From: a virus
Length of the DNA: 64,000 nucleotides
Strand: one strand, 5' to 3'
Virus genome (UHGV): UHGV-0125682
In this document: in pieces, positions 4,567-50,315 of the stretch
Position numbering within the stretch: the first letter of the stretch is position 1
Layout: each line of letters begins with the position of its first letter
Program-made: the position numbers and the translations under genes
The notes under the pieces: generated by a model
Databases searched by the model: none
What the model was told of the DNA's origin: nothing
What the model saw: only the letters and a program-made list of their open reading frames with translations

Positions 4567-4849
4567 CATTGTGAGTCCCGCTGGGATTAGAGGGATTGTT
4601 GAATGCTCTGATGACGGCACATTGCGTATATTTGAAGGCGATATTTCGGAAGAAAATATTGCGCAAGATTTACGCTTTATCAACACAAATTCCGCAATGG
4701 GGATCGTGAATACCATTCATGCCGATGGGGTGTTTGTTCTGCGGAGCCTGGAAACTGTTGGCTGGGAGGTTGAGTGGCCAGAGGTGGAAGGAGATCCTGA
4801 CGACGAAGACGATACTGGCGAATCATATCAAGACATTGATGTGAATTGA
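4556..4849 (+). CDS. small highly acidic protein (97 aa)
   Basis: ORF overlapping stop of the 1013-aa gene; C-terminus EVEGDPDDEDDTGESYQDIDVN; followed by intrinsic terminator. Confidence 0.5.
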   Translation: MKYSIVSPAGIRGIVECSDDGTLRIFEGDISEENIAQDLRFINTNSAMGIVNTIHADGVFVLRSLETVGWEVEWPEVEGDPDDEDDTGESYQDIDVN

Positions 4850-7341: not shown

Positions 7342-8340
7342 ATGCAATCACTGAATACTGTTACGGATCGCTTCTCCCTGGTAGAGAAAATCCGCAAACA
7401 CACACCGCAGAACAACCGAAATTACGTCATTCAGTCGGTACGAGACACATTCAACTCGCCAGAAACAAAAGAGCGTATCGCGCTGGGTGAGATGTATGGT
7501 TATTACGGTCATGGTCGCCGGGCGATGCACTATAACAAAACGAAAAGCCTGAACTTGCCGGAAGTCTCTGTTGTGATGGTAGATGGGAAGCCTGTTGTAT
7601 TGGAGAACGTGCCGTCAAACAGGACTATCGACATTTCGATTGACGACAACGGCATTGTTACTCATACGCAGGAAATACTGGATACAGACACCGGGCGTAT
7701 TGTTCAGGGCATGATTAATTCTGGTGCTGGTGGTTGGTCGTGGGCTACATCTGGTCCAGATTCATCGGTATCCCTGGTAAAGTCTTTCCACGGCTTTGAT
7801 TACGTAACTGTGCCTAACTATATCAGCCTCGACAAGAAAAGCCTGATGCTTGAATCAGCAGAAGAGCGCGATGCGGCTATTCATGCAGCACTTATCGAAC
7901 AAGGTTTTACCGATAACGCTGCTACGGATCTGGTTCACCACTTTTCAGCAATGAAAAATCAGCAAGCCATGCTCGAATCTGCACATCGTGAAGCCCTGGA
8001 ATCAGAATTGATGCTCCTTGAAGTGGAAAACATACAGCTTCGAGATAAGCTGCGCGCTCAAACAGCGATGATGGAAAGCCAGGGGGAAAATGCAAAGCAA
8101 TGCCGCCGGATTTTGCGTGACGCTATCCAGGAAATGCCTGTTTTTATCAGCGCAGAACAGCGCCGGGCGCTCTGCCGTATGCAGTCTGAAGATGATGCCC
8201 GCATAGTGGCTGCGATGCTTGAATCTCTTGGGGCAAATGCTACTTATGGCTTACCGGTATCAGGCAAGAAAGAACCAGAGTTATCACCGAAGGAGAACAA
8301 AAACACCACCCCGTTACTCTTCGTTTCCAGAAGGGGGTAA
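7342..8340 (+). CDS. hypothetical protein with C-terminal coiled coil (possible head protease/scaffold)
   Basis: GGAGGG RBS; coiled-coil-rich C-terminal half. Confidence 0.35.
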   Translation: MQSLNTVTDRFSLVEKIRKHTPQNNRNYVIQSVRDTFNSPETKERIALGEMYGYYGHGRRAMHYNKTKSLNLPEVSVVMVDGKPVVLENVPSNRTIDISIDDNGIVTHTQEILDTDTGRIVQGMINSGAGGWSWATSGPDSSVSLVKSFHGFDYVTVPNYISLDKKSLMLESAEERDAAIHAALIEQGFTDNAATDLVHHFSAMKNQQAMLESAHREALESELMLLEVENIQLRDKLRAQTAMMESQGENAKQCRRILRDAIQEMPVFISAEQRRALCRMQSEDDARIVAAMLESLGANATYGLPVSGKKEPELSPKENKNTTPLLFVSRRG

Positions 8341-9641: not shown

Positions 9642-9670
9642 TTGATCTTCCATGTTTTCAGGCTTATATT
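9642..9670 (+). promoter_or_regulatory. sigma70-like promoter for immI-like module 1
   Basis: TTGATC, 17-nt spacer, TATATT, just downstream of operator. Confidence 0.45.
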
Positions 9671-9916
9671 CATGCCGTCGTAGCAAATTCTGCGACCGGG
9701 TTTGACAGCCTGAATACTTACGCGGACAACCGCACATTTCCGATATTGCGGTATTTTTGTGTCCGTAAAACCACGTTACGCCCGAATTATGGTGGGGCGT
9801 GATGGGGAGGCTTCGGCCTGCTGGTTTCGTAAGTGCCAGTCTGTCAACCCTGTCACGTCCTGCCACCTGTTTGACAGCGGGTCGCAGGTTGTTTATCAAC
9901 TTACGAGGCCGTAACT

Positions 9917-20539: not shown

Positions 20540-21748
20540 ATGAGTCAACACACTGATACTTCTAATCTGGAAATTATCTCGACAGCAATTGAAACGCTGC
20601 GCACACAAATCGCTCTTATACAGAAACGGAATCCGGGTGATGACCTGTCAAAGCGACTGCACGAGAGTGTCATTGCCACTACAGATAACCTGGTGGCGGA
20701 AATCAACAAGCTGCTTGATGATGGGGCAGTTGATTACAATAAGCTGGTGGATCAGTTTGAGGAATACCAACAAGCCGTTAATGATGGCTTGATCCGTTTT
20801 TCACAAGTCACAGGCGTATCAGCGACAGTTGAAAGCCTGGGTGATGCAGTTAATCAATTTGCCGCGAATATGCGTAATGAGATCGGCAATCTGGAAGCGC
20901 GTCTTGAACAGGCAAATACACTGCGTAAATCTGCCGAAGCCGATTTGAACCGTTACAAAAAAGACTATCCGCCCAGCCTGACAAAGCGGCTGGATGTTGC
21001 GGAGAAGGATAACCGCACGCTGAAAAGAGAGCGCCGGGAACTAAAAGAGCGTTTAACCAAGCTCAATCAGCAATGCATTGATTATCAAGGCGAAGGCGTC
21101 ACACTGCGTAAAAAGTTGGCTACAGCGCAGAGCATTATCGAAACATTAAAGCGAGAGTGCTCACAGCTTGGTCACGATCTGAACCGTGCTTGTGGCATGG
21201 GACAAAGACCAGAGACATTTCCACTTATGTATGACGGAAGGGATGCCATTGCCTACATCCATGAGTATCCGCACGGCCTGGTTGCGGAAACTGGGCAGCG
21301 TGGCGAAGCACTGCTGACGGCTAATTACCATCAACAAATCAGAACCAATCGCCTGTTAACGATGGATGTGATCCCATCGGTATGGGGAACGCCGCTTTAC
21401 TATCGCCTGCCGGGCTTCGAAAAGGACTGGAATACCGACATAGACGAATGTCTCGCAGATAAAATTATGGCGTACCTGGAGACGGATTTTCCGTGCTTAT
21501 ATCGCCGGATTATGGACTCTAAGGATGCGCCAATCGATGAATTAAAAATGCGTCCGGAGACGCTGGAGGCAATCAAGCAGACGGAGTTTGATACTGTATT
21601 CAGTGTGGCCTGCATTCCAAGCTGTTTCCATGAAAGCATTCCGTTCATGCAAGGAGATCGTCGTCAGGAAATCATTGACGCTTGCCGGGTATGGGCGAAC
21701 GAATGGGATAAGAATAATGGGGGTGTAGAAGATCTTTACGGGAAATAA
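20540..21748 (+). CDS. hypothetical protein, N-terminal coiled coil (402 aa)
   Basis: ORF with AGCAATG start context; operator upstream. Confidence 0.55.
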   Translation: MSQHTDTSNLEIISTAIETLRTQIALIQKRNPGDDLSKRLHESVIATTDNLVAEINKLLDDGAVDYNKLVDQFEEYQQAVNDGLIRFSQVTGVSATVESLGDAVNQFAANMRNEIGNLEARLEQANTLRKSAEADLNRYKKDYPPSLTKRLDVAEKDNRTLKRERRELKERLTKLNQQCIDYQGEGVTLRKKLATAQSIIETLKRECSQLGHDLNRACGMGQRPETFPLMYDGRDAIAYIHEYPHGLVAETGQRGEALLTANYHQQIRTNRLLTMDVIPSVWGTPLYYRLPGFEKDWNTDIDECLADKIMAYLETDFPCLYRRIMDSKDAPIDELKMRPETLEAIKQTEFDTVFSVACIPSCFHESIPFMQGDRRQEIIDACRVWANEWDKNNGGVEDLYGK

Positions 21749-21767
21749 TGTGTTAGAAATCTAAAAT
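21748..21767 (-). promoter_or_regulatory. operator-like repeat
   Basis: atgtgttagaaatctaaaat. Confidence 0.5.
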
Positions 21768-21904
21768 CACAATTCGAATGTATTGATTGTGAAGGTAACT
21801 TAACATAGAATTTTCCTTGCTGGTGGGCGGTACCCACGTTTCGCTTGCTGGGCTTGATAGTCACTTATTGGTTATTGTTCGCCCACCAGCATTTAACAAA
21901 TTAA

Positions 21905-21922
21905 AGTGTTAGAAAAGTATAG
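21905..21922 (-). promoter_or_regulatory. operator-like repeat
   Basis: agtgttagaaaagtatag. Confidence 0.5.
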
Positions 21923-22498
21923 TAACGCAAGAGCACGCTTTGGCACCGTGCAGGCCAAAGTTCAGCAGGTTTAGTGCGGAAAGTGGTTTCAGAGAGAGCA
22001 CTTTGCGGAGTAAACGACAATACATGTTGAGCCAAGGAAGGTCTTTTTAAGGTGTTTATTGATGATGGTCCGGCAGAGAGTAACGGTACATGCTGCATCT
22101 AATCATCAATGCACATCTTCAACATTAAGGAGGCATAGGGATTTTTGTGGCGGTTACCTTTTGCCCTGAGTCTCCTTAATGTTGCGGTAATGCACCTATG
22201 CGGATGTGGCCTTGCATTGTGTCTTGAAAGAATGGGGTAAGGCCGGGGATATCCCCAGGGGGAGGCACCCCCGCTGCAACGAACAGCCACAGACGGCAGT
22301 CGAGTGATGGAAACGTGCAAAGACTTTAAACCTCGTTACGGCTGGCGTGGCAAACGCGACAACCGAGACAGAGCGGTGACGGGCGGAGAGAGTGCCGCAT
22401 CAAGAAAGAAGCCGACTTGTGATCCCTTTCAGCGGGCATTTGAAAGTGAATCCAGCTCAGGCAGTCGGCTTCTTTCTTGTGTGAGATGTAGCGTATTT

Positions 22499-22522
22499 GC
22501 CCATCTTCGGGTGGGCTTTTTT
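22499..22522 (+). terminator. intrinsic terminator inside ORF-poor region
   Basis: gcccatcttcgggtgggc hairpin plus T6. Confidence 0.6.
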
Positions 22523-22982
22523 AGGGTTTTCGTCATGGTTAGCGACTTTGCGGCGGTTTATAAACTGACCATTAAAGTAAATGCAAACGATGATCTGATG
22601 ATGGTAGCGGCCTAAGAAGCCAGACGCCACGGGGTATGAGTCGTCCCCCGTCAAAAAATCGACCGCAGAGTGTCCCCGTCTGTGTATTAGGGAACGGGGA
22701 GGCATAACAGGCAAGGGCGCTGGTGTGATTAACCAGATGAATGAGAAGGGTCAGGTCTTTCTGGTCAGCGCCCTTACCTGTTACGTCCCTCCCGCGTAAC
22801 AGCCATTGATTAATGGCTTTCTGGGATAACATCCTACTACGGGTATATCCCGTCATGCTGAAGGCGCTAATCACGCTGGAAGCCAGGGTTGTGCATCCCC
22901 TGTTACCGAATTGCAGCCAGGGCGCGGTGCGCCGAAAAGCATACGGAGGTGGAAGCCCTCGCCGGAGACGTACCCGGCAAGT

Positions 22983-23059
22983 GATGGTGTAGCTCAGTAG
23001 GATAGAGCAGCAGCCTTCTAAGCTGTCGGTCGGTGGTTCGAATCCACCCACCATCGCCA
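22983..23059 (+). tRNA. tRNA-Arg (anticodon UCU)
   Basis: Manual cloverleaf fold: 7-bp acceptor GATGGTG/CACCATC, TTCGAAT T-loop, anticodon loop CTTCTAA, encoded CCA. Confidence 0.85.
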
Positions 23060-23061
23060 AT

Positions 23062-23137
23062 GCCGGTTTAGCTCAGTTGGTAGAGCGCCTGCCTTGTAAG
23101 CAGGATGTCAGCGGTTCGAGTCCGTTAACCGGCACCA
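23062..23137 (+). tRNA. tRNA-Thr (anticodon UGU)
   Basis: Manual fold: acceptor GCCGGTT/AACCGGC, anticodon loop CTTGTAA, T-arm AGCGG-TTCGAGT-CCGTT, CCA. Confidence 0.85.
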
Positions 23138-23146
23138 ACACAACAG

Positions 23147-23220
23147 GTAAGGGTATTTTGCGACGTCGGAGATCGCCGTGCTTGGCAGAGGGTTCGAATC
23201 CCTACGAAGTACCCTTACCG
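23147..23220 (+). ncRNA. tRNA-like element or tRNA pseudogene
   Basis: 10-bp terminal stem GGTAAGGGTA/TACCCTTACC enclosing AGGG-TTCGAAT-CCCT T-arm-like hairpin, but spacing is non-canonical. Confidence 0.3.
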
Positions 23221-23775
23221 TTGTGATGAAGTGCAGCTCTTTGAAGCAACCAGAAGATAAGCATCTGGCTTCACAACATAAACCGCAGGAACGACCAATA
23301 AACGGTAGTCCGTATGGAGAACACCCCGTTGAGGAAGAGGCCTGGCCGGAACCGTAACCGGCACTACAACGTTGAGAACACTGGCGTAACGGGGTCATAT
23401 CCCAATCTATGAATAAATGTTGCGTTGCAGCGTGACAACCAGTGTTCTCAACATTGTGGTGAATGCGCAGGCTGATGCGCGAAAGACATTGCAGCTATTG
23501 CGGAAAAGAGCTGTTCGGCGGGGCAATTAAACGCCCGTGAGAGTCTGAAATAACCGCAAGCCGGAGATCAGCACCGGTCGCCACAATAACGGGAGAGTAG
23601 GGAGCATGGTGCTCAAGCAGTCTTGAAAACCGTCCCATTGCGCACGCGGAACAGTTAAAACAATCCTCCTTAGTGGTTAAGTCAAACATCCCGGCGTTAA
23701 TTGTTAACTGGTTAACGTCACCTGGAGGCACCAGGCACCGCAGCTTTTTTATTCGTTAAATAATGGAGTGAGAGG

Positions 23776-24012
23776 ATGCAGAACAATCCGAACAAATGTC
23801 GAACGCTATGGGTGCGGTTATATATTTATGTCGTCCTCTGTTTGATTGTGTCACTGGTTCTGTATGTTTGGCTTTTGCCAAATATGATCTCATCTGACAG
23901 CACAATACTTGTATTGTTGGGAGTCCTTCTCGCGCTCATTTACCCGGCTTTTGCAGTAGTCTTTTTTCGTGAAAAAACCAGGAAATTGATTAATGAAAAA
24001 AACGTTGATTAG
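23776..24012 (+). CDS. small membrane protein (78 aa)
   Basis: GAGAGG RBS; two hydrophobic helices. Confidence 0.5.
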   Translation: MQNNPNKCRTLWVRLYIYVVLCLIVSLVLYVWLLPNMISSDSTILVLLGVLLALIYPAFAVVFFREKTRKLINEKNVD

Positions 24013-24820
24013 TGCAGCGATTATTTTTGGTTCTTTATGTCTGACCGGATGCGACCGGGTAGAACCAGGCAATGTAGGGATCAAAGTAAATAAGCTGGGG
24101 GATGATAAAGGTGTCGGCGAAGTAGTTGGCGTTGGTCGCTACTGGACAGGCTGGAACACAGAAGTTTATATCTTCCCGACCTTTAAGCAAATGAAGACCT
24201 ATGATGATCCGTTCAGCTTCCAAATGAGCGACGGGACAACAATTGGTTACCACATTGGTGTAGCTTACAAGGTTGATCCGGCAAAAGTCACAACTGTATT
24301 TCAGACCTACCGCAAAGGCGTGGATGACATTACCGACACCGACCTGCGCCAGAAGATTGCCGACGCACTTAACCGACTGGCCAGCAAAATGACCACCGAC
24401 AAATTTATCGACGGTGGCAAGTCTGAACTACTGGATGCAGCTCTTAAAGACATCCAGGAAGAAATGACGCCCATCGGTATTCAGGTAATGAGCCTCTCAT
24501 ATGTGGGCAAGCCGGAGTACCCGCCAACCGTTATCGACAGCATTAATGCCAAAGTCACGGCGAACCAGAAAACTCTGCAACGCGAGCAGGAAGTCAAGCA
24601 ACGCGAAGCAGAAGCCAACATGCTGCGCGCAGAAGCTGCCGGACAGGCCGATGCCATTCGCACAAAAGCCCAGGCTGAAGCTGATGCCATTCGTTTACGC
24701 GGTGAGGCTCTGCGCCAGAACCCCGGCGTTATGGAGTTGGAAGCGATCAACAAATGGAACGGAACGCGACCGCAGTATATGACCAGTAATACCGCTGTTC
24801 CGTTTGTTCCGGTGAAATAA
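23993..24820 (+). CDS. plp: SPFH/band-7 domain lipoprotein (Plp-like)
   Basis: Signal peptide with lipobox LCLTGC; coiled-coil Ala/Glu-rich C-terminus typical of SPFH proteins. Confidence 0.65.
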   Translation: MKKTLISAAIIFGSLCLTGCDRVEPGNVGIKVNKLGDDKGVGEVVGVGRYWTGWNTEVYIFPTFKQMKTYDDPFSFQMSDGTTIGYHIGVAYKVDPAKVTTVFQTYRKGVDDITDTDLRQKIADALNRLASKMTTDKFIDGGKSELLDAALKDIQEEMTPIGIQVMSLSYVGKPEYPPTVIDSINAKVTANQKTLQREQEVKQREAEANMLRAEAAGQADAIRTKAQAEADAIRLRGEALRQNPGVMELEAINKWNGTRPQYMTSNTAVPFVPVK

Positions 24821-50003: not shown

Positions 50004-50315
50004 AACACTGACTGTTGCGCCCTGGCATTATCGTGGGGTATATTTCTACGGCACCTTAGAAAAACGGGTGCCGGGATTGGAACCCCGGATAATGCAAAAG
50101 GCGACACAGACGCCGAAAGCGTCTTTTTTTGTGTCATGCCATCGCACAGCCATACGTAGCGTTTAGCTCAGAGATCAATGGTAGTGCTGGCTGGGCTGCC
50201 GAAAGGCAGGCCGGTTCCCTTTTGCGCCGGTAGTTCCAACCCAGTCAGTGCTACCGCCATTGAGATTGGAACCTCACGCGGTAGCTCCTTAAATTAGCAA
50301 AAGGAGGCTGCCAAT

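Follow-up and report, generated by a model that had tools for sequence, protein, structure and literature searches.

What is held by two kilobases of a phage genome in which two transfer RNA (tRNA) genes, a series of long hairpins and no convincing coding sequence (CDS) are found? This question is raised by positions 21750-23780 of the virus genome UHGV-0125682, of which one strand of 64,000 nucleotides (nt), hereafter the window, was analysed. A reading made from the letters alone (the sequence-only reading) had proposed one or more structured non-coding RNAs for this region, and the proposal is borne out by compensatory stem changes in relatives, by the lack of a conserved coding frame and by the location of the region 3' of a repressor-operator promoter. 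In the comparison with P1-like phages the stems are conserved, with compensatory substitutions. We propose that the region is a leader of modular RNAs, among them a 'tag RNA' that resembles the message domain of transfer-messenger RNA (tmRNA) but lacks its tRNA-like domain, and that the frame of this RNA is translated without a start codon by way of host trans-translation. To this reading we assign a probability of roughly 0.55.

By sequence, the window can be identified as a D6/P1-like phage-plasmid, and 21750-23780 as the non-coding leader of a repressor-controlled rightward operon, the D6-type counterpart of the P1 ban operon leader. Escherichia phage D6 matches the 2-kb region with 97.6% identity over 90% of its length, and P1 matches the right-hand kilobase (22496-23480) with 93% identity; related sequence was found in more than 1,100 plasmid records, most of which are E. 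coli phage-plasmids. The homologous stretch of P1 lies directly 3' of the C1 operator Op72ab and the P1ban and P2ban promoters, and continues through trnA and trnT into tciABC, trnI and ban; operator-like repeats and a putative promoter are the equivalents in the window. The leader can be read as a mosaic of structured RNA modules common to many unrelated phages, and its promoters and conservation point to its transcription.

A tmRNA-like tag module

The element on which the proposal turns has the following parts:

22526-22703, plus strand: tmRNA-like 'tag RNA' module of about 180 nt (nhmmer E = 2e-60, single copy in the window)
22526-22533, plus strand: 5' motif of the module, GUUUUCGU
22542-22553, plus strand: module element GCGACUUUGCGG
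22583-22612, plus strand: tag frame ANDDLMMVAA, with its stop (22613-22615) in the loop of hairpin 22609-22621
22629-34/22646-51 (stem S1, ACGGGG/CCCCGU) and 22640-43/22660-63 (stem S2, GUCG/CGAC), plus strand: pseudoknot a
22664-68/22680-84 (stem S1, CGCAG/CUGUG) and 22673-79/22694-700 (stem S2, UCCCCGU/ACGGGGA), plus strand: pseudoknot b

In the window the frame reads AAAGUAAAU GCA AAC GAU GAU CUG AUG AUG GUA GCG GCC UAA, i.e. ANDDLMMVAA followed by a stop, without a start codon of its own. Its resemblance to the host degradation tag ANDENYALAA accounts for a weak match of the permuted-tmRNA model over 22510-22615 in a permissive Rfam scan (E <= 10; 25.4 bits, E = 0.013, threshold 47); the beta_tmRNA model gives 15.2 bits against a threshold of 84. 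In the window and in all eight further relatives the tmRNA families are the only Rfam families that match the module, always below threshold, the relatives scoring 22.6-33.4 and 14-21 bits with the two models (14-33 bits overall, against gathering scores of 47-84). The Rfam/Infernal scan of the region recovers the tRNAs, but no above-threshold family could be assigned to the tag module or to the elements M2 and M3 described below, either at the gathering threshold (window and 32 related loci) or at E <= 10 (region).

Counted from GCA, the frame comprises exactly ten codons and a stop in 203 of the 207 pattern hits, the first codons having been fixed in three of the five IMG/VR patterns. For this reason the retrieval was repeated with patterns confined to either the pseudoknots or the 5' motifs and excluding the tag. 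These gave 125 and 199 hits, respectively, and all 324 have a ten-codon frame starting with Ala, including new tags (ANEEMYLAVA, ANDEQFLAVA, ANDDQFLAVA, ANEERFLMAA, ANDSEVLMAA, AKDDQFLAVA) and GCT AAT as synonyms of GCA AAC at codons 1 and 2. The 32 distinct DNA versions of the frame encode ANDDLMMVAA, ANDDVVLMAA, ANDNTFLAVA, ANDNVFLAVA, ANDNEMRAAA, ANDNYALAAA and others. At Ala codons 9 and 10 most of the variation is in the third position (variability 0.38 and 0.59), the stop never varies, neither of the other two frames (+1 and +2) is open, and single-nucleotide codon differences are synonymous in 641 cases versus non-synonymous in 247. These patterns show selection on the frame, which in the best-supported account acts at the level of the peptide. 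In P1 and most variants an in-frame TAG is found eight codons 5' of the tag frame with no intervening ATG, which means that the frame is not an ordinary open reading frame (ORF), and that the 26-codon reading from an ATG in the window is not conserved. The U and A at -5 and -4 before the resume codon are the same as U85 and A86 of the E. coli ssrA sequence that was fetched for comparison.

The structures on the 3' side of the frame covary as well. The hairpin with the stop codon occurs as GGC/GCC, UGC/GCA and AGC/GCU, and among 61 sequences the two stems have 19 and 11 distinct versions in pseudoknot a and 20 and 26 in pseudoknot b, all of them with Watson-Crick or G.U pairs. In a MAFFT alignment of 54 distinct sequences, 85.3% of stem cells are paired versus 71.9% in shuffles (a value reached in none of 500), double-sided changes number 151 versus 46.6, and the covariation score is 0.353 versus 0.145, or at most 0.13 with slid partners. 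A CDS begins right after pseudoknot b in several loci, so that the tag module is self-contained. In two IMG/VR contigs (L016 and L119), unrelated G+C-rich sequence ending a long ORF takes the place of pseudoknot a and of the module's 5' half; an insertion element is suspected there.

The 5' motif of the module, GUUUUCG(U), occurs without a mismatch in 83 of the 95 contexts retrieved via the pseudoknots and with a single changed base in the remainder. No complement in cis was found in 61 of 62 contexts or on the plus strand of the window, and none to the 5' end of the module lies within 600 nt downstream. In 26 of 129 contexts, only 6-12 nt separate the motif from the end of a consensus sigma-70 promoter on its 5' side (mostly TTGACA-17-TAGATT or TATAGT), which would place the motif at the extreme 5' end of the primary transcript in those phages. 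Its complement ACGAAAAC is present in codons 3-6 (GAC GAA AAC UAC) of tmRNA from E. coli, the one ssrA compared, with a perfect match of 9-11 nt depending on the lineage. Together with the invariance of the motif, this match is no more than suggestive of a link with host tmRNA. The tag of Salmonella is ANDETYALAA, which would speak against host-specific adaptation of the motif.

A 21-mer from the tag stretch occurs in at least 120 IMG/VR contigs, many of which are not P1-sized, and blastn identified the module in 276 phage records, which belong to five or more unrelated groups (P1/D6-like, lambdoid, T1-like, N4-like, Ackermannviridae and others); after further scans, 61 distinct genomic contexts were known. 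Carriers include Kuttervirus PS5 and Serratia phage 3M (both virulent Ackermannviridae), the N4-like Gamaleyavirus PD38, phages of Cronobacter, Aeromonas, Vibrio and Enterobacter, and phages of about 46-50 kb (STGO-35-1, genus Caminolopintovirus, and others) that we read as T1-like because of their size and gene order. Of 5,426 complete E. coli genomes, 656 have the module, at 554 places on plasmids and 150 on chromosomes. A gapped 18-base pattern run over the genome collection gave chance matches only, the module being found in none by nhmmer. None of the phage records that carry the module annotates it as an RNA. No prior description was found in Rfam 15 or in the full-text literature, searched also with the tag peptide strings (subscription literature lay outside this scope), and a preprint on P1vir RNA-seq does not discuss the leader.

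Lambdoid prophages have the modules in an interval that opens with a terminator, located past the end of a reading frame, and closes with a membrane-protein-like gene; we read this slot, for which the annotation gives no confirmation, as that from the late terminator after Q to the holin gene, where Stx phages carry tRNAs. T1-like phages have a dedicated promoter that drives tag-M2-M3-hairpin-tRNA-Met, and in Ackermannviridae, N4-like and about 88-kb phages the module is located inside tRNA clusters. These positions characterize the tag RNA as a recurrent passenger of phage 'tRNA islands'. The gene-free surroundings in PD38 (L246, 1300-2530) and PS5 (L248, 1650-1930) contain further tRNA-like elements which have a T-arm, end in CCA or lack an anticodon, and which ARAGORN leaves uncalled or calls oddly, e.g. 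as 'tRNA-Cys(aca)' or 'tRNA-Ala(cgc)'.

Structured elements on either side of the module

The left part of the region (21750-22525) has D6 as its only match among phage records, and IMG/VR contigs provide homologs at 82-99% identity. Folding z-scores compare the RNA free energy with that of 200 dinucleotide shuffles, and stem arms are from a repeat search. The left part and the gene before it contain:

20540-21748: gene for a PmgS-like protein, 5' of the leader
21749-21759, plus strand: operator-like repeat copy 1, TGTGTTAGAAA, kept in all homologs of the alignment (A1)
21783-21811, plus strand: putative sigma-70-like promoter TTGATT-17-TAGAAT, between the operator copies
21818-21891, plus strand: hairpin of the D6-lineage leader with a perfect 12-bp base (arms of 12 nt, 21818-21829/21880-21891); z = -4.14 for 21812-21897
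21905-21915, plus strand: operator-like repeat copy 2, AGTGTTAGAAA, a direct repeat
22046-22184, plus strand: two adjacent long hairpins formed by inverted repeats (22046-22122 and 22120-22184, the latter with arms 22120-22140/22164-22184); z = -5.49 for 22042-22190
22185-22400, plus strand: near-invariant 220-nt stretch, found only in the D6 lineage among phage records, with almost no substitutions even in 82%-identical homologs and no Rfam match at E <= 10
22401-22522, plus strand: perfect 17-bp hairpin and intrinsic terminator (22499-22522); z = -4.42 for 22395-22524

The two operator copies noted in the sequence-only reading are present as (A/T)GTGTTAGAAA at 21749 and 21905. The window has seven copies of this repeat versus 0.93 expected, and seven was reached in none of 100 shuffles; other GTGTTAGAAA copies lie near both C4 RNA loci, which fits the expectation for a C1-type operator. 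Both promoter hexamers are kept in the A1 homologs that cover them (82-99% identical overall). The C4-type antisense RNA loci are two separate ones, at 9664-9870 and 50051-50261 of the window, one with an a1/b1 target element (RF03163) and the other preceded by an isrK-like RNA (RF01394), suggesting two immunity (immI-like) modules in one phage-plasmid.

The stems cited earlier were all recovered by the repeat search, except that the one at about 22711-22778, described as a perfect 15-bp stem, has a C.A mismatch between 10 and 7 pairs. Two more had escaped notice, a perfect 17-bp inverted repeat (22401-22417/22463-22479) just 5' of the terminator and a 13-bp stem (23146-23158/23207-23219). The six hairpin segments with z-scores below -4 are each matched in stability by only 0-1 of the 200 shuffles, while the stretches between them are not significant by free energy alone. 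Matches of the long hairpins to miRNA families in Rfam were discarded as generic-hairpin noise. The intrinsic terminator was correctly recognized: a hairpin at 22499-22516 (7 pairs, UUCG loop) is followed by TTTTTT up to 22522, and this terminator is kept in P1 and D6 types. With the 17-bp hairpin it could form a short leader RNA or an attenuator.

Compensatory changes in the contigs L106 and L058 were found in hairpin 21818-21891 (GGGCG/CGCCC to GGGGA/TCCCC), in hairpin 22120-22184 (A-T to G-C) and in hairpin 22401-22479 (two double changes). In a further IMG/VR contig, L072, the homolog of 22133-22171 is the exact reverse complement and the 13-bp arms of hairpin 22120-22184 are unaltered, which points to DNA recombination between the arms.

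The elements on the 3' side of the tag module are:

22704-22792, plus strand: M2 #1, base AUAACAGGYAAGGGC / GCCCUUACCUGUUA with a variable interior (arms 22696-22722/22766-22792); z = -5.65 for 22694-22796
22797-22982, plus strand: spacer 5' of the first tRNA, about 93% identical to P1, with small hairpins at 22801-22818 and 22839-22853; folding z-scores in this spacer are only -2.2 and -0.15
22983-23059, plus strand: tRNA-Arg(UCU), CCA encoded (ARAGORN; Rfam RF00005, 72.1 bits)
23062-23137, plus strand: tRNA-Thr(UGU), CCA encoded (ARAGORN; Rfam RF00005, 74.9 bits)
23140-23226, plus strand: M2-T, with a tRNA-like interior made up of a D-arm-like GCGA-CGUCGGAGA-UCGC and a T-arm GGGUUCGAAUCCC, and no anticodon arm; z = -5.23 for 23138-23230
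23362-23461, plus strand: M2-like long hairpin of about 22 bp, common to P1 (arms 23362-23384/23439-23461); z = -6.12 for 23355-23466
23456-23584, plus strand: M3, with closing helix GUGGUG/CGCCAC, 5' hairpin GCGCA-GGCUGA-UGCGC, variable centre and 3' hairpin CCGG-AGAUCAGCA-CCGG
23587-23775, plus strand: distal leader with hairpins 23693-23720 and 23721-23735 (z = -0.2)
from 23776: the first CDS 3' of the leader, a 78-aa membrane protein whose ATG lies here, and after it the genes for an SPFH-type lipoprotein and for tRNA-Met(CAU)

M2 cassettes, of which the window has three, are long hairpins in which the sequence of the base is conserved (..ACAGGYAAGRGC / GCYCUUWCCGUUGU..) and the interior is hypervariable. 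An M2 is found directly 3' of the tag module in P1-like, lambdoid and T1-like loci, with the same stem and different interiors. Because interiors in relatives hold either a tRNA-like fold, a likely substrate of RNase P, or a minimal hammerhead, M2 elements may be processing or insulating cassettes. No hammerhead core (CUGANGA ... GAAA) is present in the window; in six loci, however, the M2 interior beside the tag module is by inspection a complete minimal hammerhead core, scoring below the Rfam gathering threshold. In the type locus L284 (about 7850-7990, minus strand) this core reads GCGCGC CUGACGA GUCC-AUGAG-GGAC GAAA CGC-AUUA-GCG UC|GCGCG.

The M2-T fold was found in 69 loci. Its acceptor-like helix covaries (UAUUUU/GAAGUA, CAUUGG/CCAGUG, CAUUGC/GCAGUG) with a third pair that stays a U.G wobble, and M2-T carries a third GGTTCGAATCC at 78-nt spacing; it is called neither by ARAGORN nor by the Rfam tRNA model. 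The tRNA cassette itself varies among P1-like relatives: Asn or Arg(UCU) comes first, Tyr is optional, Thr follows, Ser(UGA) is again optional, and Met(CAU) comes last. The first slot holds Asn(GUU) in P1 (L001, 2994-3069) and D6 (L002) versus Arg(UCU) in the window; the acceptor stem GAUGGUG/CACCAUC and the flanks are identical, and the D, anticodon and T arms differ, which looks like a cassette swap inside the tRNA gene.

M3 corresponds to a 146-nt block that is 95-99% identical to lambdoid and Stx phages, and that lies 3' of the repressor gene in mEp460. Its 16 distinct instances include covariation of the closing helix (GUGAUG/CAUCAC), and the free-energy fold recovers this helix and both hairpins, with a z-score of only -1.0. 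The two hairpins are conserved in sequence and have complementary loops (GCUGAU/AUCAGC), so that a kissing interaction is possible. An M3-like element (GUUGUGGUGAAUAAGGCAGG ... CUGCCGAAUAGACUGUGUACCACAAC) at 4640-4735 of locus L007 is weakly like the Rfam Methylophilales-1 motif (17.2 bits versus a gathering score of 79.9) and may indicate a wider family. In the distal leader, 23640-23742 is 99% identical to D6.

Possible roles of the tag module

According to our proposal the leader would be transcribed, most likely as one precursor, and its self-contained modules would be exchanged horizontally among enterobacterial phages. In order, these are the D6-lineage 5' part with its 17-bp hairpin and terminator, the tag RNA, the M2 cassettes, two functional tRNAs and M3 with its kissing hairpins. 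The ten-codon frame starting with Ala would be a template for ribosomes that resume translation, as on the message domain of tmRNA, and stalled chains would gain a C-terminal peptide specified by the phage (ANDDLMMVAA here), similar to but distinct from the tag of the host. Since the module has no tRNA-like domain of its own, it would depend on the trans-translation machinery of the host (tmRNA-SmpB), for which the invariant and often 5'-terminal GUUUUCG(U), without a partner in cis, is the best candidate contact with host tmRNA. We tentatively go one step further: an RNA of about 180 nt, found in at least five phage groups, might give host ribosome rescue a substitute message domain, possibly by docking on tmRNA via GUUUUCG, with phage tags (ANDDLMMVAA, ANDDVVLMAA, ANDEQFLAVA and others) replacing ANDENYALAA.

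Besides the fixed codons in part of the retrieval patterns, several observations weigh against translation via the host machinery. ARAGORN calls no tmRNA in 127 module-bearing stretches, a scan that looked for T-arm, U70 and CCA together with a G3 partner yielded no result that was consistent from one lineage to the next, and no candidate for an acceptor piece was found in the 64-kb window. Neither a pseudoknot equivalent to PK1 nor helix P2 is evident 5' of the frame, where 45-60 nt are A/U-rich and lack conserved pairing (z = -1.4). As the tRNA-like domain with G3:U70 and CCA is what defines a tmRNA, the module is not a canonical one, and we know of no mechanism that loads a message domain lacking such a domain. 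Pairing of the 5' motif with E. coli tmRNA as calculated by RNAduplex is no stronger than chance (z -1.2 to +1.6 versus shuffled 22-mers), and the match, which was noticed post hoc, has a perfect complement of only 9 nt in the P1/D6 type. What precedes the module is a closed M2 hairpin, a promoter (T1-like phages among others) or, in P1/D6 and some lambdoids, a terminator, in which case expression would require read-through or antitermination. The architecture, frame and pseudoknots nevertheless lead us to regard the module as one that works like, or derives from, the message domain of a tmRNA.

We favour dependence on host tmRNA-SmpB. Its main rival, which we consider possible although distinctly less probable, is that the module is a non-translated mimic of the message domain, acting as a decoy or sponge for SmpB, S1 or stalled ribosomes, or as an antisense RNA to the tag region of tmRNA, so that host trans-translation would be damped or redirected during phage growth. 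A module without a tRNA-like domain has no obvious route to the A-site, its invariant, single-stranded 5'-terminal motif complements tmRNA codons 3-6, and its pseudoknots and helix-5-like hairpin are common to tmRNA, all of which would suit a mimic. An RNA that is not decoded should not, however, keep exactly ten codons, an invariant stop, third-position variation in the Ala codons and synonymous replacement of GCA AAC by GCT AAT, and a duplex energy that does not exceed chance argues against the antisense variant. Next in rank, and rather unlikely in our view, the module could be the coding piece of a two-piece tmRNA-like system, with as acceptor a separate phage RNA (of M2-T type, or an odd tRNA-like gene) or a partner supplied by processing or ligation. 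This would agree with the permuted-tmRNA models giving the best sub-threshold scores (22.6-33.4 bits), with the anticodon-less tRNA-like elements that recur beside the module in P1-like and lambdoid loci, with its usual place in tRNA clusters, and with the hammerhead of some M2 cassettes, which would yield ligatable ends. It is weakened by T1-like phages and several lambdoids, which carry the module without a conserved tRNA-like neighbour, by M2-T, whose third acceptor pair is a U.G wobble instead of G.U and which encodes no CCA, and by the absence, in cis and in the window, of anything that complements the 5' end of the module.

It is improbable that the hairpins are mainly DNA-level features, i.e. 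inverted repeats and conserved linkers at the boundaries along which a mosaic accessory region recombines, with the tRNAs as the only functional RNAs and the frame as a decaying relic of a captured ssrA fragment. Mosaicism is certainly strong, as P1 and D6 share only 22496-23480, M3 is nearly identical to its lambdoid versions, the interior of hairpin 22120-22184 is inverted in L072, M2 stems are conserved around swapped interiors, and Asn and Arg tRNAs replace each other within the same acceptor stem. Yet compensatory changes preserve the pairing of pseudoknots, which have no equivalent in DNA hairpins, the ten-codon frame is under purifying selection over at least five phage groups and 61 contexts, and dedicated consensus promoters are located directly 5' of the module in T1-like and other phages.

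Least probable of these readings, we believe, is that the region encodes small proteins, either Plp and Upl on the minus strand or a 26-aa peptide that is initiated at an ATG and ends in ANDDLMMVAA. P1 annotates plp and upl here, a stop-free stretch of 123 codons on the minus strand is intact in 19 of 21 variants, PHROG 27020 ('unknown function', 68 aa) matches the minus-strand ORF 22653-22856, antisense to pseudoknot b and M2 #1, with E = 2.5e-45, and an ATG of the window, at 22536, shares its frame with the tag. The P1 'plp'-like frame is, however, antisense to tRNA-Thr and M2-T, its 11 variable sites are spread 4:4:3 over the codon phases, it is truncated in 2 of the 21 variants and it has no Pfam match; the frame from the ATG is closed by TAG in P1 and most relatives; ORF 22304-22615 has TGC changed to TGA in 4 of 10 homologs; and the minus-strand ORFs are broken by indels and an inversion among homologs. 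A small frame from the ATG inside AAAUGCAAAC (MQTMI and a stop here) was likewise rejected, as it has 5, 7 or 9 codons depending on the lineage and is not conserved. No ORF of the region has a Pfam match and no frame behaves like a gene, in agreement with the initial impression of the sequence. PHROG 27020, with plp and upl of P1, suggests a protein family built on mis-annotated non-coding sequence, and it is probable that all antisense ORFs with an annotation in this region, i.e. plp, upl, various hypothetical proteins and PHROG 27020, are artefacts.

If functional, the tag RNA would be a component of ribosome rescue that has been overlooked in model phages (P1, T1-like, N4-like, Vi-like and lambdoid prophages) as well as in roughly 12% of complete E. 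coli genomes, and it would imply that a tmRNA message domain can be kept by selection without a tRNA-like domain. By altering the tag a phage might spare its own truncated proteins, evade tag-dependent proteolysis or counter defences that cleave mRNA or tRNA. Should docking and tag substitution occur, this would be a previously unknown re-programming of trans-translation and a new class of translated 'non-coding' RNA. The tag RNA, M2, M2-T and M3 are in any case candidate new RNA families, which account for long gene-free stretches in the 'tRNA regions' of phages.

Comparison with known systems

With the leader of the P1 ban operon (annotation NC_005856), the homologous locus, the window shares the terminator hairpin, the tag module, the M2 cassettes, the tRNA slots and M2-T, at 93% identity over 22496-23480. 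The window departs from P1 in the 750 nt at 21750-22495, a stretch peculiar to the D6 lineage, and in the first tRNA slot, where Arg(UCU) takes the place of Asn. The tRNAs are the sole RNAs named in the P1 annotation, which also predicts antisense ORFs. Its 'dicF-like region' ends in the terminator common to the window, whereas the upstream sequence differs; the DicF model of Rfam has no match at E <= 10 in 21500-24100, and the terminator hairpin is the only part in common with the P1 feature.

M2-T is similar to Y RNAs (YrlA, RF02553) and to the 'stable RNAs' of phage tRNA clusters in that a long end helix encloses D-arm-like and T-arm-like hairpins without an anticodon arm. In contrast to YrlA, it is missed by the Rfam model, whose only weak match is to the true tRNAs, it has no Ro/Rsr context, and its stem has the sequence of the M2 family. 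The 5' end of the tag module resembles base-pairing small RNAs (sRNAs), the seeds of which are often located at the 5' end of the primary transcript (e.g. RybB, OmrA/B), as its invariant motif is short and single-stranded, would open the primary transcript and has no partner in cis. In the module, however, a translated-looking frame and pseudoknots follow this motif instead of an Hfq module and a terminator, and the target of the motif is only a candidate.

The closest likeness is to tmRNA (RF00023, clan CL00001), with which the module shares a start-codon-less frame that opens at the Ala codon GCA and has ten codons and a stop, tags of the form AN(D/E)x..(A/V)A, U and A at -5 and -4, a stop in a hairpin loop (helix 5) and H-type pseudoknots directly 3' of the frame. 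It differs in that it lacks an acceptor stem with G3:U70, a 3'-terminal T-arm, CCA and the closing helix P2, shows no evident PK1, has two instead of three pseudoknots after the frame, and is about 180 rather than about 360 nt long. In permuted two-piece tmRNAs (alpha-proteobacteria, some beta-proteobacteria and cyanobacteria; RF01849, RF01850, RF04321) the coding RNA is likewise apart from the 3' acceptor half, the models of these RNAs give the best sub-threshold scores on the module, and some lambdoid loci have a T-arm element directly 5' of the module, i.e. in the permuted gene order. This upstream element of the phages, in contrast, pairs with a 5' strand of its own to form a closed hairpin and lacks CCA, it is missing in many phages, and the 5' end of the module complements no acceptor 3' strand that was found.

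Phage-borne complete tmRNAs are full-length and found by standard tools, whereas the module of the window is missed by these tools and has no tRNA-like domain. Complete tmRNA genes are carried, for example, by mycobacteriophages and a marine methylophage (PMC9004378, PMC3029335). What the tag module would have in common with these genes is the presence of a ribosome-rescue component among the tRNA genes of a phage.

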